Shown here piece after piece: positions 1 to 10,984 of a stretch of DNA of 64,000 nt (position 1 is the first letter of the stretch; the number at the start of each line of letters is the position of its first letter). Both the position numbers and the translations under genes were made by a program. The notes under the pieces are model-generated. The model did no database searches. It worked only from the letters and a program-made list of their open reading frames with translations, and was not told where the DNA came from. This DNA is from an uncultured delta proteobacterium (GTDB lineage: Bacteria > Myxococcota_A > Polyangia > Fen-1088), in assembly GCA_963737265.1 (NCBI GenBank), contig CAVTRY010000011.1, forward strand, positions 1 to 64,000, written 5' to 3'.

Positions 1-438
1 TTCACACTTCTTGGCCAGGGTGTCTTTGAGCGCAAACGAGGTGCCGTCATGGCACAGAATCTCCGAGAACTGAGCCAGCTTGCCCTTCGGCAAACTCTCA
101 AGCACGGGTGCCGTCAGCTTCGCGAGCGCCTGTTCGAGCATGGCGTGCATAAAGATGGGGAATCTCCGTTTGCTCAGTTGGTTGTGGAAAGGCTTGTAGC
201 GAACAGCCTTGCCGGTGAACGCATTGAAAGCACGCAGGATGTCCGCGAGCCACGCAGCTGTGCCTGCCCCCAATGTCGAGATGCGGGCTACAAGAAGCGC
301 GGCCCGGGCAATTTCGCGGCGCCGTCGAAGAAAGCCACACCGGCGAGCCGCCTTCTCCGCCTCGGCATCGCTGAGAACCTGCTGTAGCTTTTGGCTGAGT
401 GTCTCCGCCTCGGTCGTGGCAATGTCTCTCTTGGGCAC
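1..438 (-). CDS. IS4-family transposase, N-terminal part (runs off the window edge; not in the ORF track)
   Basis: Manual translation from GTG at 438 (GAGGAG RBS upstream): VPKRDIATT...GFLRRRRE...VRYKPFHNQLSK...FSEILCHDGTSFALKD. YKPFHNQL and the first catalytic Asp motif (DGTS) are typical of IS4-family transposases. Confidence 0.8.
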   Translation of the reverse strand, partial: MPKRDIATTEAETLSQKLQQVLSDAEAEKAARRCGFLRRRREIARAALLVARISTLGAGTAAWLADILRAFNAFTGKAVRYKPFHNQLSKRRFPIFMHAMLEQALAKLTAPVLESLPKGKLAQFSEILCHDGTSFALKDTLAKKCE

Positions 439-564
439 CGGGAACCTCCTCGCGTTTGTCTTCGCAAACGAATGTGTACGAGGATTCCGGTGCCTTTTGC
501 AATCACCTTGAACATCCGTTCAGTAAGCGATCGATTTCATTGAGGAATTAAGATCCTACCTATG
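1..564 (-). mobile_element. IS4-family (IS231-like) insertion sequence, one end
   Basis: The minus strand from 564 reads CATAGGTAGGATCTTAA, the CAT-N9-CTTAA pattern of IS231-type terminal repeats, directly upstream of the transposase. Confidence 0.65.
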
Positions 565-572
565 TGGGCAGA

Positions 573-959
573 CTAAGCGGCGGCCGGGGAGTAGGCCACC
601 CGAAGTTCATTCGCCAACATGAGGAATCGTGGGTCCGCAGTCCACACCTGGAATCCACCGACCACCGCGGACGCCAGAATGTTCACGTCGATCCATCCAA
701 CACCTCGCCCGAAAAGTCGTCGTTCACGAACAAACTCAACAACCTCCTGGTGGGCGACCGTCTGAGCTTGGTACATCTGCGTGTACGCTTCGAGAAGGTT
801 CCTTCTGCCGCCTCCAACGTCGCCAATGAGCAGTTCGCCGAAAACCATCTCGTGTCCAACAGCCTCGTCCCGACCAAGAACCTCGTCAAGGCCGCTGGCG
901 AATGGCTTACGACCGGCGAGGAACCGGATCCAGACCGAAGTATCTACTAAGACCATCAC
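573..959 (-). CDS. vapC: VapC/PIN-domain toxin (cassette 1)
   Basis: VLVDTSVWI...GELLIG...IDVNILAS...WTAD PIN motifs; 4-nt overlap with the antitoxin. Confidence 0.92.
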   Translation of the reverse strand: MMVLVDTSVWIRFLAGRKPFASGLDEVLGRDEAVGHEMVFGELLIGDVGGGRRNLLEAYTQMYQAQTVAHQEVVEFVRERRLFGRGVGWIDVNILASAVVGGFQVWTADPRFLMLANELRVAYSPAAA

Positions 960-1168
960 GCTACCTTACGGCTTCTTGGCTGCTCCCTTCGGCGGGGCAC
1001 CTCGCGGGCGCGTGGCTCCGCGCCTCGAAGCGAGCGCAGGCGTTCATAAGCGGCGTGTCGGACGAGCGCCTCCAGGCCGAGCCTAACGGTGTCTGTGTCG
1101 GTGGTGGCACGGCACGCAACCTTGGCGTGCCTAAGCAGTTCCACGTCGATGTGCAGAGTCTTCTTCAT
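956..1168 (-). CDS. vapB: VapB-family (RHH) antitoxin (cassette 1)
   Basis: MKKTLHIDVELL...TDTVRLGLEAL; GGAGG RBS; immediately upstream of the PIN gene. Confidence 0.88.
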   Translation of the reverse strand: MKKTLHIDVELLRHAKVACRATTDTDTVRLGLEALVRHAAYERLRSLRGAEPRAREVPRRREQPRSRKVA

Positions 1169-1191
1169 ACCTCCTAGCTTACCATACTTAG

Positions 1192-1208
1192 ATGGCTATA
1201 TCAGCCAT
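1192..1208. promoter_or_regulatory. Candidate VapB autoregulatory operator
   Basis: Inverted repeat ATGGCT-N5-AGCCAT just upstream of vapB. Confidence 0.45.
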
Positions 1209-1221
1209 ATCGCGTGGCGCT

Positions 1222-1392
1222 GCCCAACAAATAGGCGTTGCAGCGGACGAAGGCCCGTCAACTCTCGGTCGACGGTCAACGAGCCGGGGCCGCGCGGCTA
1301 TTCAGATGATCCGAAGGCCGCCGCGCGGCCCCGGCAGTGCTACTATCGACCTTCACCTAAAGGCCTTGCCGCTGAACGGCAAAGCGTTGGAC
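1222..1392 (+). other. attC integron recombination site 1
   Basis: R'' GCCCAAC (1222) and R' GTTGGAC (1386); L-box arms gcgttgcagcggac / gccgctgaacggcaaagc; long internal GC-rich hairpin. Confidence 0.85.
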
Positions 1393-1396
1393 GGAC

Positions 1397-1804
1397 CTAC
1401 GTCGGGACGATGAGGTCGACGGTTGGAAAGTACGCACGATAGCGCCGTGGATCTCGTGTCAAAATTCGGAAGCCCGACACCGCGGCGTGCGCGCCGATGT
1501 AGAAATCAGGGAGGGGCGAGGTTCGCGCTCCACCGCGACGCCGGTATTGCAGAAATGCCTTGCCGGCCAAGAAGGCTGCCTCATAGGGCAGCGGCTCACG
1601 CCTGAAGGTCGTGCTGGGAATCGCCTGCTCAAGTTCTTCGACCCTTCCGTATCCGATGGACACTTCTGCGTAGATCAGCGCGTTAATTGCCAGCGGCGAG
1701 TCGTTGGCTGCCGCTTCCAGCGCCTGTGACGACGACTCGGACCAAGTCGGGTCATTGGTGGCAATATCGAGAATGATGTTGCTGTCGACCAGCGTTGTCT
1801 TCAT
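1397..1804 (-). CDS. vapC: VapC/PIN-domain toxin (cassette 2)
   Basis: LVDSNIILD...YAEVS...LPDFYIGAHA...LTRD. Confidence 0.92.
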   Translation of the reverse strand: MKTTLVDSNIILDIATNDPTWSESSSQALEAAANDSPLAINALIYAEVSIGYGRVEELEQAIPSTTFRREPLPYEAAFLAGKAFLQYRRRGGARTSPLPDFYIGAHAAVSGFRILTRDPRRYRAYFPTVDLIVPT

Positions 1805-2037
1805 CCGGCTTTCCGGGTCAGCGCAAGAATCTGGTCCGTGCTCATCTTGACGTCAGCAGTGCCCCTCAGCCGTGCGACGACGTTGGCGCCCCGGCCGCTC
1901 GATTGCTTCAGTGGAGTCTTAACAAGACGAACGGTATTCCCATGTACCTCGAAATCGACTTGGGTGTAGGGGAGAATCCCCAACTTCTCGCGCACTTCGA
2001 TCGGAATCGTCACTTGTCCCTTTGACGTAACTCTCAT
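1801..2037 (-). CDS. AbrB/MazE/SpoVT-family antitoxin (cassette 2)
   Basis: MRVTSKGQVTIPIEVREKLGI motif; overlaps the toxin start. Confidence 0.92.
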   Translation of the reverse strand: MRVTSKGQVTIPIEVREKLGILPYTQVDFEVHGNTVRLVKTPLKQSSGRGANVVARLRGTADVKMSTDQILALTRKAG

Positions 2038-2107
2038 GGTCTTACTCCTACAGGTAATACTACGACAAAGCTATCCCCGATGCAAGATGGCGAACGCGTT
2101 GATGGCC

Positions 2108-2221
2108 GTCCAACAAGCCGTTGCAGCCGTTGCAGCGGATGTGGTCGCCGCAGGGACATCGGCGTAGAATCGAGTGGCCGGCTTGGCGGCGCCCACACCG
2201 CCGAACGGCAAGGCGTTCGGC
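2108..2221 (+). other. attC integron recombination site 2
   Basis: R'' GTCCAAC (reverse complement of the preceding R' GTTGGAC) and R' GTTCGGC; same arm motifs as attC1. Confidence 0.85.
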
Positions 2222-2265
2222 AGACGTGGGACGTTGAACCGCGGCGGAGGCTTGACAAGTATATA

Positions 2266-2499
2266 CCTGCGAGAATCTGTCAGAACGGAGGCAGTCAGGC
2301 TGTGCGTCTGCCAAAGTCTTGTCGTTTCAAGGCGGACCAGGACCAGGTGATCGTCCGGAAGGTGGGGAAGCAGGTCATTCTTGAACCCGCTGACGAGTGG
2401 CCGGCGGAGTTCCTGGCCTGCCTGGGTGCGTGGCACGATGACATCCCCAAGCCGCCCGTACGTAGAGTTGCATCCAGAAGGAACCCCTTCGACTCGTGA
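2266..2499 (+). CDS. vapB: VapB (AbrB-type) antitoxin, apparently lacking a start codon (cassette 3)
   Basis: ARICQNGGSQAVRLPKSCRF...VILEP is the classic VapB/VagC N-terminus. No in-frame ATG/GTG/TTG lies between attC2 and this motif; the ORF-track start at 2080 is upstream of attC2, in the previous cassette. Confidence 0.75.
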   Translation, partial: PARICQNGGSQAVRLPKSCRFKADQDQVIVRKVGKQVILEPADEWPAEFLACLGAWHDDIPKPPVRRVASRRNPFDS

Positions 2500-2888
2500 A
2501 ATACCTTCTCGACACAGACAGTGTCAGTAATGCGCTTCGCGGTCAGGGAGACGTGGGCGTGCACATCCGAGAGTGCAATCCATCGGACCTCCGCATCAGC
2601 GCGATCACGCTCGCGGAACTTCGGTACGGAGCTGACAGAAAGGGATCACGGAAACTCAACGGCCTCATCGACACGTTTGCGGCCGCCATCGAAGTTGTGC
2701 CATTCGACGAAGTCGCCGCAGCCGAGTTCGGCCGGATCGGTAGCATGCGTGCCGAACGGGGAACACCTATTGGAGAGTTCGATGTCCTCATCGCCGCGCA
2801 TGCGGTCTCACTGCGATGCACCCTGGTCACTAACAACGTGCGGCACTTCTCAAGAGTACCAGGACTGTCGGTCGAGAACTGGGCCTGA
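2496..2888 (+). CDS. vapC: VapC/PIN-domain toxin (cassette 3)
   Basis: YLLDTD...TLAELRYG...FDVLIAAHA...LVTNN. Confidence 0.93.
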   Translation: MKYLLDTDSVSNALRGQGDVGVHIRECNPSDLRISAITLAELRYGADRKGSRKLNGLIDTFAAAIEVVPFDEVAAAEFGRIGSMRAERGTPIGEFDVLIAAHAVSLRCTLVTNNVRHFSRVPGLSVENWA

Positions 2889-2904
2889 GACAAGGCGCAG
2901 CGCT

Positions 2905-2931
2905 GCCGAACAAGCCGTTGCAGCGCTCGTA
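2905..2931 (+). other. attC site 3, left arm only (degenerate or truncated)
   Basis: GCCGAAC aagccgttgcagcg matches the attC2 left arm and complements R' GTTCGGC; no recognisable right arm. Confidence 0.6.
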
Positions 2932-3106
2932 GCTGCGTGTGGCCGACGACGGGGACAAGTGTGGCGGCGGGCGTGGTGTCGACAAGCTGTGCGACATTGG
3001 GTTTGGCAGCGGCAAACGCGCGATGTGCGCGATAGGCCTCGTCGGCGATGGCCACCAAAGCGTCGCGTTCAAGGCCGACTGGTCGGGAATGAGCCTGTGA
3101 CTGAGA

Positions 3107-4570
3107 TCAAGGACAGGTGCTATTCAGCTGAGGCGAGAGGCTGGCGACGTTGCTCTGGTAGTTGGACGGTGCGCCGCTGACGTTGATGCCGATGACGCCT
3201 TCCGAAATGCGCGCGTTGATGGTGGAAGCCGGCTGATTCGACCAGGTGTCGGACGCCTGCGACAGGCCGGCGCTTTCATCGACCAGGATCTTCATGCCGG
3301 TCAACGTGCGCAGATACGAATAGGTGCAGGTCTTGCCGTTGTACGTGGAGCCATTCGTGCCCGCGACCATGAAACCGTTGTTGTTGCCAACGCCCGTGGT
3401 CCAGACGAGATCGAGGCCGGTCCCCTTCATGGCGTTCCAAAACGAGTTGGTCACATCGTCCGAGTTCCAGGTCGAGTGATCCATCGCGACGATGGCGTTC
3501 GGCATGTTCGTCTTGATCGCCGTTGTGATCAGGGCGGCGAGCTGCCCGAGTTGCTGGTAGGTAAGCGGCTGGGTCTGCGACGAGGAGGCATACTGGACGT
3601 AGTCGCCCTCTAGCAGCCAAATGAGTGGCTTGGTTGGCCACACGGCGTGGCTTTGCTTGGCGTAATACGCGTACGCTTGGACGATCTTGTTTTGGTCACA
3701 AATTTGCCCGGATGGGCAGGCCGAATTCGCGGTTCCCAGGATCAAGGCGCCAGCGCCCGTCGTGAGGTTCGGGCCGCCGCTTTGGTTACCATCGGGAAGA
3801 CCGTTCACGTGTCCATAGAAACCGATGATGTAGGCATAATAGGATGGGACAAGGTTGGTCGAGGCGAGCTGCTGAAGCCAGCTGCACGTTTCACAGGACG
3901 ATACGCTCCCGTCGGCCTTGATGGATTGTCCCATCCAGTTGGTTGCCCACTGTAACCAGCTGTAGGAGGCCGGGCTCGGCTCGCCCCACCCAAATTTGCA
4001 GCCGAATGGATCGCCGTGGCCGGCAGCTCCGGCGCTTCCGGAACTGCCGCCGGTTGCCGGGGATCCTCCGGCCCCGCCGTACCCAGTCGCAGTCGAGCCA
4101 CCGGTGCTGGCCAAGAATCCGCCGCTTCCCGCGCTGCCGTTTACTGCGCCACCGCTTCCAGCCGCGGCATCCGGGCCCGAGCCACCTCGACCGCTGACTC
4201 CGCCGCTTCCTGCTGCTGTGCCGCCGTCGGCCACCACGCCGCCCGTTCCTGACATTCCGCCATTGCCCACCGTTCCGCCCTTGGAGGATCCTCCCGTCGC
4301 TGGCAGTCCGCCGCCACCCAAGGCGGCCCCCGACGAAAGCGTGCCGCCCGTCGAGGCCACTCCACCCAGGGAGGCGGTTCCACCGGTCGAGCTTGTGCTG
4401 CTTGTGGAGGTAGTGCCGCCATTGGTCGCCGTTCCGCCACTCCCATCTCTTGCGCCTCCTGTTCCCGGCGAGGTGCTCGATCCGCTCGAGCAGGCGCCGG
4501 CCAACCCGGCGAGCGCAGCGAAGACAAGACCAAGGCCGGATGCTCGCAATCCTCTCCGTGGTGATTTCAT
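3107..4570 (-). CDS. Lipoprotein with long Gly/Ser/Thr linker and an unassigned aromatic-rich C-terminal domain
   Basis: Signal peptide with lipobox LAGAC, low-complexity linker, about 300-aa globular domain (possibly glycoside hydrolase-like; inference). Confidence 0.75.
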   Translation of the reverse strand: MKSPRRGLRASGLGLVFAALAGLAGACSSGSSTSPGTGGARDGSGGTATNGGTTSTSSTSSTGGTASLGGVASTGGTLSSGAALGGGGLPATGGSSKGGTVGNGGMSGTGGVVADGGTAAGSGGVSGRGGSGPDAAAGSGGAVNGSAGSGGFLASTGGSTATGYGGAGGSPATGGSSGSAGAAGHGDPFGCKFGWGEPSPASYSWLQWATNWMGQSIKADGSVSSCETCSWLQQLASTNLVPSYYAYIIGFYGHVNGLPDGNQSGGPNLTTGAGALILGTANSACPSGQICDQNKIVQAYAYYAKQSHAVWPTKPLIWLLEGDYVQYASSSQTQPLTYQQLGQLAALITTAIKTNMPNAIVAMDHSTWNSDDVTNSFWNAMKGTGLDLVWTTGVGNNNGFMVAGTNGSTYNGKTCTYSYLRTLTGMKILVDESAGLSQASDTWSNQPASTINARISEGVIGINVSGAPSNYQSNVASLSPQLNSTCP

Positions 4571-4769
4571 TGAATGGGGTGCTCCTGCATTCGGGACGTG
4601 TGACGATGTGGGATGAGACAGCGGCGATCCTGCGCGAGTTGCGTCAATCCGTGGCTTCACCTAGGCAGGTGGCCGATGCGGTCAGGATATCATCATTGAG
4701 CGATCGAGGCGGGAGGAAACTCGGTCTGGGGGGTGGCTTTGTGGTGTGCGACGGCCACGCGGAATCGCA

Positions 4770-5012
4770 GGGCGGGCTTGGTGGAACCACCGCGTCCGCC
4801 AGTGGAACCACCGGGTCCACGAGTTCCGGCGGTGGGACGGCCCTCATCGAGTGGGGGAGGGGACGCGAGCGCTGGGACACCGTGTCCCGACGGTGGTGTT
4901 GATGGCGTCGCCCCTGATGCGGGCGCGGCGTCGCCCTACATTGCGGTTTGCGGCACGTCGCTCTGTCTCGGAGGGCAGTCCTTTCGCGTGAAAGGGGCAA
5001 CGGCGTACGGAG
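4770..5012 (+). pseudogene. Frameshifted remnant: Gly/Ser linker plus start of a GH5-like domain
   Basis: GGTTASASGTTGSTSSGGG then, in another frame, PYIAVCGTSLCLGGQSFRVKGATAYG, resembling the first strands of GH5 mannanases; ends abruptly. Confidence 0.4.
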
Positions 5013-5055
5013 CAAGGCCACCACAGGCTCGTGGTGCGCGGTCGACGGTCGCCCA

Positions 5056-6114
5056 TCATTGAGGGGTTGGGAAAATATAGATCGTATACGTGTCGGTGGC
5101 CGATTTGTCGCCGTAGTTGCTGTCGAAGTAATAAAACGAAATGGGACTGCCGGTACCCGTGTAAAGCAGATAGTAAATGTGGTCGTTGCGGTACGGGCCC
5201 CACCAGGTCGACCGCTGCCCCTTGCAATCATCCGCTGCGGTTTCGTCGACGCCAATTCCGAAATCGCACGCTCCGTCGTTGCTGTTTGCGCCGGCACCCG
5301 TCGCCGACCAGTCGTCGTACTTCGCGTCGCCCATTCCGAGGTTCCCCGCGCCGACGGGCGCGGCGCCGGAGGCTTGTAGCAAGTAGATGGTGCCGCTTTC
5401 GCCAGTCTGGGTGCTCTTGACGGTGATTTTCAAGTCTGGAACCTGCAGCGTCTCGAGGGTACTCACGCCGATGCTCGGTGGCGCGGGCGACGGGGGCTTG
5501 GGCCCGGGCACCGGCGTGTCCGTCGCAGGTGGGGTCGGCGCGAGGAGGAAAAGCGAAACCGGGATCGACCCTGACGAGGCGCTGCCGGAGGTGACGAGCT
5601 TGAGCGTCAGCGGCTTCCCGGCGCCCGTGACCGTCATGTAGTAGACATGAACGGCAGTGAAGCTCCCGAACCACTTCATTCGCGCGGGGCCATAAGTCAC
5701 TTGCGCTCCCCCGTTGGGTGGGTGGAGTTGCAGGAGGCCGGTATCGATCCCGACATCCGTCCCGTTGACGACATCCGCCGCGCCCGTGCCGTCCGCGGCG
5801 CTCGCAAACTCCGCGTCTTGTAGCTCGGTGCCGACCGGGACACTGCCCTTCGCCTCGAGCAAATAGAGCGCTCCAGATGTGAGGCTCGTCTTGAACGTGA
5901 CAGGAGTGCCCGCCGCTGGGGAGTCGATCGTCTCGATCGCGCTCGCCGACGCGGTTGATCCGCCGGTCGCCGAGGTTCCACCGGTCGCTTGCGCGCCGCC
6001 TGTTGCACCGCCAGATCCTTGGACGGCGCCGCCCTGGGCCGTGGCTCCACCCGAGCTCACGATACCGCCCGACCCCTGCGCTCCTGACGCGGGGGCCCGG
6101 AGGTCAACGACCCG
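5056..6114 (-). CDS. Gly/Ser-linker protein with two similar beta-rich domains; probably N-terminally truncated
   Basis: Repeated motif YLL(E/Q)A.G..PVG...DA.(F/Y)...G(I)..D...W(F/W)G....H.YY....G.G.P; no signal peptide; the frame is open up to the upstream gene's TAG. Confidence 0.65.
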   Translation of the reverse strand, partial: RVVDLRAPASGAQGSGGIVSSGGATAQGGAVQGSGGATGGAQATGGTSATGGSTASASAIETIDSPAAGTPVTFKTSLTSGALYLLEAKGSVPVGTELQDAEFASAADGTGAADVVNGTDVGIDTGLLQLHPPNGGAQVTYGPARMKWFGSFTAVHVYYMTVTGAGKPLTLKLVTSGSASSGSIPVSLFLLAPTPPATDTPVPGPKPPSPAPPSIGVSTLETLQVPDLKITVKSTQTGESGTIYLLQASGAAPVGAGNLGMGDAKYDDWSATGAGANSNDGACDFGIGVDETAADDCKGQRSTWWGPYRNDHIYYLLYTGTGSPISFYYFDSNYGDKSATDTYTIYIFPTPQ

Positions 6115-7977
6115 CTATTGGCGGGCGAAGATGAGCACGCTCCAACTGGGAAGATTGATCCATATCTGGCCGTCTGAGGCCTCCAGATGGATGCCGTAAT
6201 TGCCCACGGTGTTGATGCCACCGTAGACAGGCGCCTGAGAGTTGAAGATTTCGTGCCATGTACCGCCGTCGCCGGAGAGGCTGATGCCGTACTGGTTCGA
6301 TCCCCACTGGCCGTCACCTGGATTCACGACCACAAGGAGCACATCACCATTTTGGTCATATCGTTTGAAAGCGATGATCTGGTTCCGGGTGTCGTTGTGG
6401 GTGATGAAGCCGGCGGGCGATCGCAGCGCTGGATGCGCCCAGCGAAGGCTGTTGATGTCGCGCACGAGCTGCTGCATGGGAGCACCCGTGCGATCGCCAA
6501 CCTTGGCCCAGTCGAGGCGCAGGTCTCCCCAGGGGCCGACGACTGGGTTCCATGAACCGTCGAGATGGCCCTCGCTTCCCATGAAGAGCATGGGTATGGC
6601 CGGCAGGGTGGCGTTGAGCGACCAAGCGAGGCGGGCTTTGGCGAGTGCCCAGCCGTTCGTGCGGCCACCGAAGCGCTGGGTGAGGTAGAGACCCGTGTCG
6701 CCTTGCCCGCTGTAGATCTGGTCGTGGGAGCCGGCGAGGTACATCACGTTGTGCCAGCTATTTGGATCGGAGAATAGTCGTTGGTTGTCGATGATTCCGC
6801 CGAGGCCGCCACCATTGAGCATATTGATTGTGTCCCAGGGGCTGTTCATATCCCAAATGGCAGAGAACTGAAAGACGCCCCAGGGGTCGATCCAGGGCAT
6901 AACGGAAGTGGTGGCGTCGTTGGGATTGTATTCGGCGATGAGGTACTTATCCGGGAACTCGCCGCGCAGGGCGGGAACGATGTATTCGAGGGCATCAGGC
7001 TGGATGGCCTGAACGGCGTCGAAGCGCAGTCCGTCGACGCAGAAGTCGCGCAGGTACATGCGGGCGTTGTCGAGCAGGAAGTCTTTGACTTCACGCTGCC
7101 AGAGGGCAAAGCCTTCACCCCAGGGGGTGTGGTGGCCGTTGACGAAGTAAATGCCGCCCAAAATGAGATTTCCGCGATTATCCCGATTGTAGCCAGCGTC
7201 GTTTCCGTCGTATTGCCAGTAACGGTTATCAGAGCTGGACGCGTGGTTGTAGACCATGTCGAGAATCACAGCCAAACCTTTGGAATGGGCAACGTCGATG
7301 AGCTGGATCAACTCGGCGACAGCGCGCTCTGGACTCGTGGCGTAGGCGTCCTCAGAGGCGAAAAGGTCGCAGGGCCCGTAGCCCTCATCGGCGCCTATGC
7401 CGAGGCTCGCTCCGGGCAGGTCGCAGAGGAAGTCGGTGATGGGCAAGAGCTCAATGGCGTTGAAACCGAGGCCGCGGACGTAGTCGAGCTTGGTCATGAC
7501 ATCGACGAAGGTGGCGATATTGTCGGTAACCGGGATGCCGTCGTTCTTGCCGGCGAACGAGCCGACATGGAGCTGGTAGATAAGGAAATCCTGGAAGGCG
7601 GGCGGGTTGAACCGCTGGCGGTTGCGGGTGAAGATGCCCGGATCGATGACATAACCCTGGGAGGTCTCGGCGGAACTTTGGACCTGCTGCGCGCGGGCGT
7701 CGGTACGGTAGTCGGCGCCGGCGATATTGTTAACGCCCCCGGGGTTGGTAATGATGAATTGGTACTTGTCATTGGCGGTGACAGGGATTTGGTCAGCCGA
7801 CCAGTTTCCGGTGCCGGGCTCTAGGGCAAGGTCGAGGGCGTGGGCAGGTAAGCCGTCGGTGAAGTCGCCAAAGACCTGCACGCGGGAGGCGTTGGGGGCC
7901 CAGACGCGAAATCGGGCTGTGCCATCCGCGTAGAGGAGACTGCCCATGCCGTCGTTGTTGGGTGAGGGAGAGCGCAT
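6115..7977 (-). CDS. GH13 alpha-amylase family enzyme with CBM48 (branching enzyme/TreZ-like)
   Basis: FRVWAPNA, IYQLHVGSF, DMVYNH, GLRFDAV, IAE, GSHD motifs; GGAGG RBS before ATG 7977. Confidence 0.9.
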   Translation of the reverse strand: MRSPSPNNDGMGSLLYADGTARFRVWAPNASRVQVFGDFTDGLPAHALDLALEPGTGNWSADQIPVTANDKYQFIITNPGGVNNIAGADYRTDARAQQVQSSAETSQGYVIDPGIFTRNRQRFNPPAFQDFLIYQLHVGSFAGKNDGIPVTDNIATFVDVMTKLDYVRGLGFNAIELLPITDFLCDLPGASLGIGADEGYGPCDLFASEDAYATSPERAVAELIQLIDVAHSKGLAVILDMVYNHASSSDNRYWQYDGNDAGYNRDNRGNLILGGIYFVNGHHTPWGEGFALWQREVKDFLLDNARMYLRDFCVDGLRFDAVQAIQPDALEYIVPALRGEFPDKYLIAEYNPNDATTSVMPWIDPWGVFQFSAIWDMNSPWDTINMLNGGGLGGIIDNQRLFSDPNSWHNVMYLAGSHDQIYSGQGDTGLYLTQRFGGRTNGWALAKARLAWSLNATLPAIPMLFMGSEGHLDGSWNPVVGPWGDLRLDWAKVGDRTGAPMQQLVRDINSLRWAHPALRSPAGFITHNDTRNQIIAFKRYDQNGDVLLVVVNPGDGQWGSNQYGISLSGDGGTWHEIFNSQAPVYGGINTVGNYGIHLEASDGQIWINLPSWSVLIFARQ

Positions 7978-8198
7978 TGGAACCTCCAGTAGGTTACCAG
8001 TTGGTTTAGCGCAAATCGGCGTGATATGCGAGCCCTGCGCGACCAAGGGTCCCTTGGTCGCGTTTCCCATCGCGAGGTGGTCAGGACGAAACGAGGATGG
8101 AACAGCATCGACCAAAGGTTCGCGGCCTACGCCAGCGGCTCCCCATTCTCCCCCTAGCCGAACACCCCAAGACGTCTGGGGCAACTGCTCTCTGGCCT

Positions 8199-8308
8199 CC
8201 GTAATCCCGCGATAGGCGCAGAAGGTCGTGGCCGTGGTCGGAGTGATCTTCGTCGGCACACGGCCACGACCACGACCACGACGGCGACGACGCTTACGAC
8301 CACATTCA
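8199..8308. repeat. Dispersed ~110-bp palindromic element, copy 1
   Basis: Highly similar to 44080-44189; internal stem GGTCGTGGCCGTG/CACGGCCACGACC. Confidence 0.8.
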
Positions 8309-8414
8309 GGCCGTGACCATGCGAGAGCAATCGCTCCGGGTCGACGTTGCCTCAAGTAACATGCACGAAAGTGCCGAATGTCTGCGCATGGAGCTGGGCT
8401 CTCGCCGCGACGGC

Positions 8415-10409
8415 TCAGGGTTGACAGACGCCGGCGGCGCAGGTGCCGCCGGTCGCGCAGCGGTGGTCGCAAGCGCCACAATTGTTTGCGTCCGTTGCCG
8501 TGTTCACGCAGGCGTTTCCACAGCGCTTGGTCGTGCTTCCGGCGCAGGCCGTCGCGCAGGCGCCGGCACTACAGAATTGCCCGGTGGGGCAGGGCTGATT
8601 GCAAGCCTCACAGTTCGCGCCGTCGGCATTGACGTTGGTACACAGACCGCCGCCGCAAGGCTTGACATTGACGTTGCTGCCGCAGCCGGCGGTGCAAACG
8701 CCCGCGACGCAGCTTTCGCCCGGCTTGCAGACGGTGGCGCAAGCGCCGCAATTGGTGAGCGAGGTCTGCGTGTTCACACAACCAACGGGAGGACAGGCCG
8801 TGAGCGTGCCTTGGCAGGAGGTGGCGCAGAGCCCGTTGGCGCACACTTGGTCGAGCGGACACTCGCTGCCGCACGCTCCACAGTTGGCGCGGTCAGAGCT
8901 AATGTCGGCGTAGCCCGTGCCGCAATTGGCGTAGGCGCCGTCCATGCCAGCGATGAAGGTGCCAATGTTGGTGCAGGCGCCTTCGACGCAGACCTCGCCG
9001 AGCTTACAGGCCGCGCCGCAGGCACCGCAGTTCCAGAAGTCGCTGCGCAGATCCGCGCAACCGCTTCCGCACGGACTCACGTTGCCACAGTTGGGCAGAC
9101 AGGTGGCCTGGGCACAGATCTGCCCGGCTGGACACACGTTGCCACAGGCACCGCAGTTGTTGCGATCGCTCGAGGTGTTGGCCGCTCTGCCGCCGCAATT
9201 CTTGATGGGCGGAGTTTCCACGAAGGCCACGCACTGTCCCTCGATGCAGCTCGTGCCCGCGGCACAAGTGTATCCCAGCACCCCGCAGTTGCTTTCGTCG
9301 GATGCGAAGGCCACGCAGCTTGCGCTGATCAGGTCCTGGCCCACGGCACAGGTGTCGGTGCAGGTCCCGGCGGAGCAAGTTTGTCCCGCCAGGCATGCGG
9401 TGGTGCAGCCGCCGCACTGGCCGAATGAGGACCGCGAAGCGCAGCGGTCGCCGCAAAGCTGGGCGTTGTCGACCCGGCAGGAATCCACGCAGGTTCCGCC
9501 GATGCAGCTTTGCGTGGGCGGACAATGCGTGCCGCAAGTGCCGCAATTGTAACTGTCGGTGGGCAGGAACGCGCAGGTGCCTCCGCAATTGGAATCCGGT
9601 GCCGGACAAGTCGTCGTACACATGGCATTGATGCAGACTTCCCCGCTCGCGCAGCTGTGATAACAAGCCCCGCAGTTGGTCGCCGAGCTCGCCGCGTTTA
9701 CGCAGGTTCGTCCGCATTGGACAAGACCAGCGGCCGCGCACGCTGTCGCTGCCTGACAAGCTCCACCCAGGCAGACCTGGTCGGCCGTGCAGGTGGCATT
9801 GCATGCGCCGCAGTTGTTGGGATCGCCGGTGATGTCCACGCAGGATCCCTCACAGTTCGGCCCGGATGGACACGCTTGGGTGCAGCTTCCATCGGCGCAA
9901 GCACTGCCATTTCCGCACACCTTTCCAATTGCGCCACAGTCGTTCGAGGAGGATCGCAATGCCACGCAGGCCAAGGTCGGGCCTTCATTCGAGTAAAGTG
10001 TGGCCGCCACAAGGTTGGCCGCGCAGCCAGTCGTGGCCGTCGCACAGATCCCATTGCTACAGATTTGGCCGTCGGGACACGACGTACCGCAGGCACCGCA
10101 GTGCTTGGCTGAGCTCATGAGGTTTACGCACAGCGAGTCGCAAACGGTGAGGCTGGGCGGACACGCCGGGAAACAAGCCCCACCGACGCAAACCTGGCTC
10201 GTCGAACAGGCAACGCCGCACGTGCCGCAATTGAATGGGTGGGTAAGCAGGTCGACACATCCGTCCCCGCACAGAGTGCGACCCACAGCGCAGGTGCCGT
10301 CGGGAAAATCCTTGTAAACCGGAAGCTTCGAGCTCGTGGACGAGCTGCAGGATTCCACGGCGGAAAGGACGACGGCGGCGGCGACAAGGATCGACAATCG
10401 GTGCGACAT
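8415..10409 (-). CDS. Cys-rich tandem-repeat lipoprotein (myxobacterial MXAN_6577/Stig1-like repeats)
   Basis: Signal peptide with Cys; about 14 copies of C...D..NCG.CG..C.....C..G.C; GAGGAG RBS. Confidence 0.85.
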   Translation of the reverse strand: MSHRLSILVAAAVVLSAVESCSSSTSSKLPVYKDFPDGTCAVGRTLCGDGCVDLLTHPFNCGTCGVACSTSQVCVGGACFPACPPSLTVCDSLCVNLMSSAKHCGACGTSCPDGQICSNGICATATTGCAANLVAATLYSNEGPTLACVALRSSSNDCGAIGKVCGNGSACADGSCTQACPSGPNCEGSCVDITGDPNNCGACNATCTADQVCLGGACQAATACAAAGLVQCGRTCVNAASSATNCGACYHSCASGEVCINAMCTTTCPAPDSNCGGTCAFLPTDSYNCGTCGTHCPPTQSCIGGTCVDSCRVDNAQLCGDRCASRSSFGQCGGCTTACLAGQTCSAGTCTDTCAVGQDLISASCVAFASDESNCGVLGYTCAAGTSCIEGQCVAFVETPPIKNCGGRAANTSSDRNNCGACGNVCPAGQICAQATCLPNCGNVSPCGSGCADLRSDFWNCGACGAACKLGEVCVEGACTNIGTFIAGMDGAYANCGTGYADISSDRANCGACGSECPLDQVCANGLCATSCQGTLTACPPVGCVNTQTSLTNCGACATVCKPGESCVAGVCTAGCGSNVNVKPCGGGLCTNVNADGANCEACNQPCPTGQFCSAGACATACAGSTTKRCGNACVNTATDANNCGACDHRCATGGTCAAGVCQP

Positions 10410-10984
10410 CGAATACTCCTCGGTAGGGATGCGAACGATGCGGTGCCCGAGTAGGTTAGCAGCCAAAGCGGCCTGCGACGAAATCTTGTTGATAGGCTTC
10501 CGGTCGAAGGCTCGATCCGCCTCGGCGGGCATCGACCAACTCGGCCAAAAGCGCGTCAATGTCAGTCTGACCGGGTAGGAAATGGGCGGTCTGGTGGATC
10601 GAGCGTGCGTTATCGTCTCCGCCTCGACCTCGGCGGCGACGGTCGCGGGCGACATCCGGGAATGGGGCTGAGCTGGCGCAAGTCACGAAATTCACCGCCG
10701 CCTGCGAGTCTCTTGCCGCGCTGGCGGGCCTCGGGCGCAGGCAGAGATGGCGGGCAAAGTTGGGAAGCGACCGGTTACCGATCGGCCCTATTTCGTGCGG
10801 ACGACCATCAAGGACTGGAGAACATCCGTGAGTGCGCGCGTACCGCGGCTCTATTTACGACAAGTTTAGTCCTTTGAAAACTGAACGAAACGTGTCCCGG
10901 CCTATAACTGCGTTAGGTTGGCGAAGCAGAAAGTTCGCCGACCGTTTCCGAACAACAACGTCTTGTCGACGAGGCCTATAGCAC

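Follow-up and report, generated by a model that had tools for sequence, protein, structure and literature searches.

Three adjacent VapBC cassettes at the probable distal end of a decaying integron array in a Myxococcota-like bacterium

Introduction

Toxin–antitoxin (TA) genes are common in integron cassettes (PMC7370490), and those of the Vibrio cholerae N16961 type (PMC13108822) are two-gene cassettes with their own promoters that lie between attC recombination sites and are enriched in chromosomal arrays. The locus described here, positions 565–2931 of contig CAVTRY010000011.1, lies in a window of 64 kb (the whole stretch of DNA that was analysed) and shares this organization. It differs from the Vibrio type in that the host is Myxococcota-like, all three of its TA cassettes are VapBC (no word beginning with 'vap' occurs in PMC13108822), its sites are decayed and related platforms of the same attC family have an intI gene pointing toward the array.

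Two further systems invite comparison. Clusters of attC sites lacking integron-integrases (CALIN; PMC4889954) likewise show attC sites grouped together and no integrase in view, but the window contains only two whole attC sites and the array touches its left edge behind an insertion sequence (IS) of the IS4 family, so that an intI may lie beyond that edge. With the inverted-integrase integrons (PMC13323075) can be compared the three IntI that stand beside attC sites of the window's family, all on the attC strand and upstream of the array, although here the integrase is seen in relatives and not in the window.

In our reading, to which we assign a probability of about 0.75, a sedentary array of integron cassettes in a Myxococcota-like bacterium is seen here at its distal end and in decay, with TA cassettes retained by addiction. 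Judged from the sequence, the tail is probably CALIN-like within the window and immobilized, with two modules that look intact and one that is silenced. A worn array tail with TA cassettes side by side is a known type of structure. On this reading the region is a clear example of the end of an array's life, in which addiction cassettes stay, mobile elements cut the recombination sites and one deletion switches off a TA module; the accumulation of TA cassettes, known from Vibrio, is thereby extended to VapBC and to a host that is Myxococcota-like.

Results and discussion

Cassette boundaries and attC sites

The three VapBC cassettes lie between attC sites whose family is found next to IntI at three other loci, and each cassette recurs in other arrays with the same edges, which bears out the claim of an earlier note on this DNA that these are integron cassettes. 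The six R' and R'' motifs quoted in that note all lie where it placed them, and each closing R'' is complementary to the R' that opens the same cassette, in runs of 7, 9 and 9 nt for cassettes 1–3; such complementarity, together with recurrence of the unit elsewhere, is what defines a gene cassette. The note had also placed an attC-like site after each TA pair. This holds for attC1 and attC2, which are whole, with complete R''/R' and L''/L' inverted repeats and the AAC/GTT core, though both are damaged; attC3, without R' and L', is a half-site only. The cluster thus comprises two whole sites and one half, the region left of base 1 lying outside the window.

Scores came from a covariance model that was trained on 48 related sites from outside the window; it is distinct from the model of IntegronFinder, and an attC model for Deltaproteobacteria also exists (PMC8352920). 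It was built on the automatic RNAalifold structure, in which the inner stem is out of register. Over the 64 kb it scored attC2 at 96 bits, attC1 at 39.5 bits and attC3 at 23 bits, the next best match reaching 15.7 bits, so that the sites exceed what chance would give. No further attC site or integrase was found in the rest of the window, and a search of Rfam gave no match.

Cassette 1 opens on the plus strand with an R' remnant, TGGGCAG (565–571); the GT that should precede it is either absent or displaced by the adjoining IS4 element, and three of four aligned homologous copies begin GTTGGGCAG here. It is closed by attC1 (1222–1392, plus strand; R'' 1222–1228, 8-nt spacer, L'' 1237–1244, L' 1371–1377, 8-nt spacer, R' 1386–1392), which is of the long (167-nt) family type, aligns with the long family sites and folds on the bottom strand with a z score of −5.1. 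The centroid fold of its bottom strand shows the R box, the L box and the bulges. Its left spacer of 8 nt is atypical compared with intact relatives, and its fold probability is 0.60 for the bottom strand and 0.83 for the top strand, so that the bottom-strand bias seen in the family medians has been lost. Cassette 2 is closed by attC2 (2108–2221, plus strand), which belongs to the 105-nt family type and has grown by a tandem duplication of 9 nt (2118–2135) over L''. In its fold the L stem forms with the R box out of register, and the probability of a fold with both R and L boxes is 4e-7 in the normal 5/8 register and 0.04 in a shifted one, compared with a median of 0.41 in 82 relatives. The half-site attC3 (2905–2924, plus strand; R'', 5-nt spacer, L'') aligns with the model by its left part only and ends after L'', where the end of an IS110 element and transposase fragments follow. 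Because the sites carry this damage (IS4 at the first R', an altered spacer, a duplication and IS110 in attC3), the cassettes are probably no longer excisable.

Cassette 1 has a 105-nt attC body in four aligned homologues and the long type in the window, which would fit a deletion from one L'' box to another that took the intervening cassettes with it. More generally, the same cassette genes occur with different attC bodies (105-nt, 167-nt or short) across genomes (window 1222–1392; locus L070, 1500–1560), and these bodies have therefore been exchanged or brought in by deletion. In both whole sites the right spacer is 8 nt (1378–1385 and 2207–2214), and the extra base in L'' of attC1 (1237–1244) is a top-strand G, both features being family-wide.

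The VapBC modules

All three toxins exceed the Pfam cut-off for PIN domains, and the acidic active-site motifs, a pattern that we take to be that expected of a PIN/VapC active site, are present in VapC1, VapC2 and VapC3. In each pair the antitoxin frame lies upstream of, and overlaps, the PIN toxin gene, pair 3 being without an antitoxin start. The description of the cassettes as three VapBC pairs, two inverted and one forward, thus stands as to the toxins and their orientation; since pair 3 is broken, they do not amount to three working modules.

Modules 1 and 2 look intact on the basis of their sequences. Both are on the minus strand. The toxin gene vapC1 (573–959; PF01850, E 1e-8) has all four acidic active-site positions and a ratio of nonsynonymous to synonymous substitution rates (dN/dS) of 0.07–0.09, and it overlaps by 4 nt the antitoxin gene vapB1 (956–1168; dN/dS 0.09), whose match to PF09957 is weak (E 4e-4; 20.7 bits against a cut-off of 23.4). 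A candidate promoter, TG-n-TAAGCT, precedes vapB1 at 1184–1176, and a candidate palindromic operator lies at 1192–1208. In module 2, vapC2 (1397–1804; PF01850, E 3e-10; four acidic positions; dN/dS 0.06) is accompanied by an AbrB/MazE-type antitoxin gene, vapB2 (1801–2037; TIGR01439 and PF04014, the latter with E 1e-8 and a score of 35.4 bits, which is above the cut-off). Its candidate promoter, TTGCAT-17-TAGTAT at 2085–2057, is conserved in L070 even though the spacer has diverged. A generic promoter scan of positions 1–3300 found no site, and these promoter calls therefore rest on looser patterns and on conservation. For VapC1 one weak VapC match was obtained, and for VapC2 none.

Module 3 is on the plus strand and comprises a broken, N-terminally truncated vapB3 (2252–2499; NF047862, E 9e-15, below the cut-off) and an intact open reading frame (ORF) for vapC3 (2496–2888; NF047863, E 1e-31, below the cut-off), which is closest to the tRNA(fMet)-cleaving VapCs (PDB 6ifc, E 9e-23). 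Compared with its copy in locus L025, cassette 3 keeps the −35 element TTGACA (2252) and is without 29 bp that carry the −10 box and the vapB ATG; a purine-rich stretch before the vapC3 start also differs between the two. Within the cassette no in-frame ATG, GTG or TTG start lies ahead of the conserved domain of vapB3. A single deletion that removed the promoter −10 and the antitoxin start together has thus probably silenced this module. An ATG at 2080 opens a frame of 139 aa that crosses attC2 and enters vapB3 (2080–2499); this frame, probably fortuitous, provides the sole in-frame start left for vapB3.

Cassette 1 has homologues at 85% DNA identity in two other metagenome-assembled genomes (MAGs), with four copies in one of them; cassette 2 has one at 77% in L070, and cassette 3 has homologues at 69% in L025 and, over part of its length, at 80% in L009. 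The L009 copy has also decayed at an array end, through a separate deletion that affects the same operator region. dS could be estimated for six of eight pairs, in which dN/dS was 0.05–0.10; the two L025 pairs were saturated. In a plasmid collection the only matches were vapBC2-like and lay outside any cassette setting; attC2 had no significant match there.

The attC family in related genomes

The GTDB genome set was scanned once with a 20-base pattern taken from the right half of attC1 and attC2, which gave 116 stretches at 114 loci; the source contig is not among these, the best match to it (94%) being the IS. An R''–spacer–L'' half lay within 260 nt upstream of 63 of the 128 distinct matches, always with a 5-nt spacer, although the left half formed no part of the pattern. 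The remaining matches include damaged sites and chance matches in unrelated taxa. Loci with whole sites belong mostly to Myxococcales or delta proteobacterium MAGs, with a few from other phyla; the myxobacterium-like host proposed in the earlier note is supported. A looser finder recovered 130 sites outside the window, 117 of them with 5/8 spacers (52 of 65 among the sites that do not match the scan pattern). This geometry is not claimed as new; attC spacers reach 10 nt (PMC7370490).

Three of four candidate tyrosine recombinases at these loci (in L011, L045 and L046) exceed the cut-off of the integron-integrase model TIGR02249 (450–453 bits against 265); all three are encoded upstream of their arrays and on the strand of the attC sites, as in inverted-integrase integrons. 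From the three regions downstream of intI an attI site was not definable. For counting covariation a hand-set hairpin was used, in which 93.2% of the cells of 48 non-redundant sites were paired, compared with 84.4% in shuffled controls and 28–41% when the structure was slid. Double changes in the stem numbered 106, against 33 in shuffled controls (0 of 500 reaching the observed value), which are themselves inflated by relatedness among the sites. The covariation supports the family hairpin, in whose stem two bases, the extra one in L'' and another unpaired one, take no part, and the median fold values of the family favour the bottom strand. In one MAG (loci L011–L029, L037 and L052) an array of at least 27 intervals is linked to intI and several further clusters are dispersed, with four copies of the homologue of cassette 1.

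Retention of TA cassettes and alternative explanations

The proposed history begins with the insertion of cassettes one by one, as circles, by IntI, as established integron biology would suggest. Promoterless neighbours would have been lost over time and TA cassettes, with their own autoregulated promoters, would have been kept, because their loss frees a stable VapC RNase and arrests the cell; killing on cassette loss has been shown for Vibrio (PMC13108822). Such a filter would leave TA cassettes adjacent to one another at the old end of the array, where the lesions described above, which are directly visible in the DNA, would have been acquired later.

A census of related arrays covered 189 intervals between successive sites at 37 loci, with 386 candidate ORFs compared against Pfam. 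Of these intervals 40 (∼21%) were labelled TA, some on an antitoxin or a weak match only, with 28 forward, 11 inverted and one containing both orientations. The last interval was TA in seven of 18 closed distal ends (3.4 expected, p ∼0.024) and the first in none of 17 closed proximal ends (2.7 expected), while the mean rank of TA intervals was 0.60 (p ∼0.024). This distal lean in relatives agrees with the suggestion in the earlier note of a distal array end or a CALIN, and the persistence of addiction modules, which it also invoked, is the likeliest explanation. The frequency of TA intervals and the occurrence of three TA cassettes in a row in two related arrays (L060 and L030) might instead be taken to mean that, in a clade where such cassettes are common, three adjacent ones need no selection. 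The bias of TA cassettes to distal ends and their absence from proximal ends argue against pure chance, which we consider quite unlikely.

It is also conceivable, although unlikely, that the cluster was never part of a larger array, an IntI encoded elsewhere having inserted cassettes at a secondary site, or IS4 having moved the block, so that the TA cassettes are those that stuck. Related genomes do hold many short scattered clusters, such as those on several contigs of one MAG, IS4 flanks the block, and off-target insertion and rearrangement are listed among the origins of CALINs (PMC8618304). The first cassette, however, opens with a regular R' remnant, its swapped attC body suggests lost neighbours, and in L061 this IS4 sits within an array that continues. 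A third view, taken up in the earlier note, is that the pairs are kept together as an island of stacked anti-phage (abortive-infection) modules. TA systems are the commonest recognized defence class in sedentary integrons, where they are of the PfiAT family (10.1101/2024.07.02.601686), and modules 1 and 2 are under purifying selection; but none of six proteins compared with PADLOC 2023 matches a defence-system profile, module 3 is broken, the three cassettes occur in different arrays of relatives and not as a conserved trio, and a Pfam scan identified no other defence genes beside them. This view is not supported by the data and seems improbable. These explanations are not fully exclusive of one another or of retention by addiction at the end of an array.

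Several observations weigh against retention at a distal end. PIN cassettes make up only nine of the 189 intervals in relatives, six of them inverted, with no two adjacent; three VapBC pairs in a row are thus unusual, and nothing other than chance accounts for their all being VapBC. The lean toward distal ends is a modest one, and arrays that share a genome are not independent; the bias is thus support and not proof. A motif scan detected neither intI nor attI in the 64 kb, the left flank lying outside the window. Finally, attC1 may not be dead, since it is still predicted to fold well.

Flanking and inserted mobile elements

The left part of an IS4-family (ISApu2-like) element occupies 1–564 on the minus strand, with the N-terminus of the transposase at 438–1 and a terminal repeat at 549–564, and abuts the R' that opens cassette 1. 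The transposase matches NF033592 (E 9.5e-13) and is ∼41% identical to that of ISApu2; an element with 94% DNA identity and the same end is present in L061. Targeting of attC by this IS4 was considered and is rejected for now, because the only other copy among the 114 loci, that in L061, sits inside a cassette, leaving one of two copies at an attC.

Directly after L'' of attC3 lies the remnant of an IS110-family element (2925–3100, minus strand), consisting of terminal bases followed by fused transposase fragments; positions 2943–3078 are 82% identical to the IS110 transposase gene of L022, whose product matches PF01548 and PF02371. The junction with attC is at the same position in the window, L022 and L114, as in the IS1111-attC elements ISKpn4 and ISPst6 (PMC11187229), with which the element shares a family-IS110 transposase at a fixed attC base, an orientation opposite to the array and, in L022, a long non-coding region downstream of tnp. 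It differs from these in that the window holds a remnant only, no sub-terminal inverted repeats were seen by eye in L022, and the L022 region contains two units with different guide-like segments. Its best plasmid relatives are less than 30% identical.

The two units lie in the intact L022 relative (L022, 4436–6310), in the non-coding region downstream of tnp; they are nearly identical, ∼95 nt long (near 4655–4750 and 4820–4915), and each contains two variable segments that match the left and the right flank of the L'' target in attC. In sequence they resemble the two target-binding loops of a bridge or seek RNA with different guides. In a shallow check of the literature, including the accessible parts of PMC11187229 and 10.64898/2026.10.21.760802, no description of such a two-unit layout was found.

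In three MAGs (L014, 10313; L027, 7075; L030; L104) R' of this attC family contains a second IS110/IS1111-type element, inserted at one fixed base. Group II introns are known to occur in attC sites. Reverse transcriptases of this class lie inside arrays L025, L031, L057 and L074, several of them opposite to the array direction. The L025 attC that closes the homologue of cassette 3 is interrupted by an inserted sequence, which is presumably a group II intron end.

A −10-like motif in the attC terminal loop

In the standard model distal cassettes are silent until they are moved next to the integron promoter Pc, and a promoter in the attC loop would matter the more for this if real. Both whole sites contain candidate motifs on the plus strand: attC1 has an extended −10-like motif, TG-C-TACTAT (1338–1346), pointing into cassette 2, and the terminal loop of attC2 has TAGAAT (2165–2170), pointing into cassette 3. 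A TAnnnT hexamer is present on the top strand of the terminal loop in 80 of 83 distinct sites of 98–108 nt, in 74 exactly 57 nt from the end, and on the reverse strand in three of 83, the background being 1.7% per 45 nt. Conservation of its T1, A2, A5 and T6 is 99, 99, 94 and 99%, respectively, with positions 3 and 4 variable. The changes on a tree number two, one and two for T1, A2 and T6, eight and seven for positions 3 and 4, and 3–16 for the other loop columns. Among sequences of 160–175 nt, 15 of 17, including attC1, have TG-C-TACTAT, the other two looking like false positives of the finder; short attC sites lack the motif (0 of 19). TAnnnT also occurs in 22 of 27 TA leaders of the clade, only seven of which have a clear −35. 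Ordinary forward cassettes have leaders with a median of 26 nt, with TAnnnT in eight of 57, and since these leaders are short they need an upstream promoter.

These patterns raise the possibility, which we put forward tentatively and with some doubt, that the attC of this Myxococcota family is also a promoter, a conserved TAnnAT −10 in the loop of both long types firing into the next cassette. If so, each cassette would carry a promoter for its downstream neighbour, the whole array could be expressed without a gradient from Pc, integrase-less CALINs would stay active, and transcription started in the upstream attC would run antisense through inverted TA cassettes such as 1 and 2. Against this stand the lack of a conserved −35, the shared ancestry of the sites, which are repeats, and the near-equal conservation of some neighbouring loop bases; alternatively, the motif may serve hairpin extrusion or protein binding. 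A reading of the motif as a stop codon (TAA/TAG) is less likely, as neither the conservation of A5 and T6 nor the TACTAT of long sites would follow from it.

Cassette-internal promoters that make distal expression independent of Pc have been described (PMC8876359, PMC2945992, 10.1101/2023.11.21.568050). Among them are one promoter that spans an attC (PMC2945992) and one start site lying inside an attC (10.1101/2023.11.21.568050), and promoters of cassette-borne, IS, intron and gene-less kinds are named in a review on how cassettes are expressed (PMC8876359); the candidate motif here differs in being a fixed, family-wide feature of the attC loop. No paper on a family-wide attC promoter, nor any on myxobacterial arrays, was found in the literature searched, most subscription papers lying outside its scope.

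Downstream genes

Beyond the IS110 remnant, the minus-strand genes of positions 3107–10655 include two that encode Gly/Ser-rich, secreted-looking proteins without a Pfam match (3107–4660 and 5056–6060). The same stretch also encodes an alpha-amylase/CBM48 enzyme and a Stig1-like cysteine-rich protein with 11 repeats.

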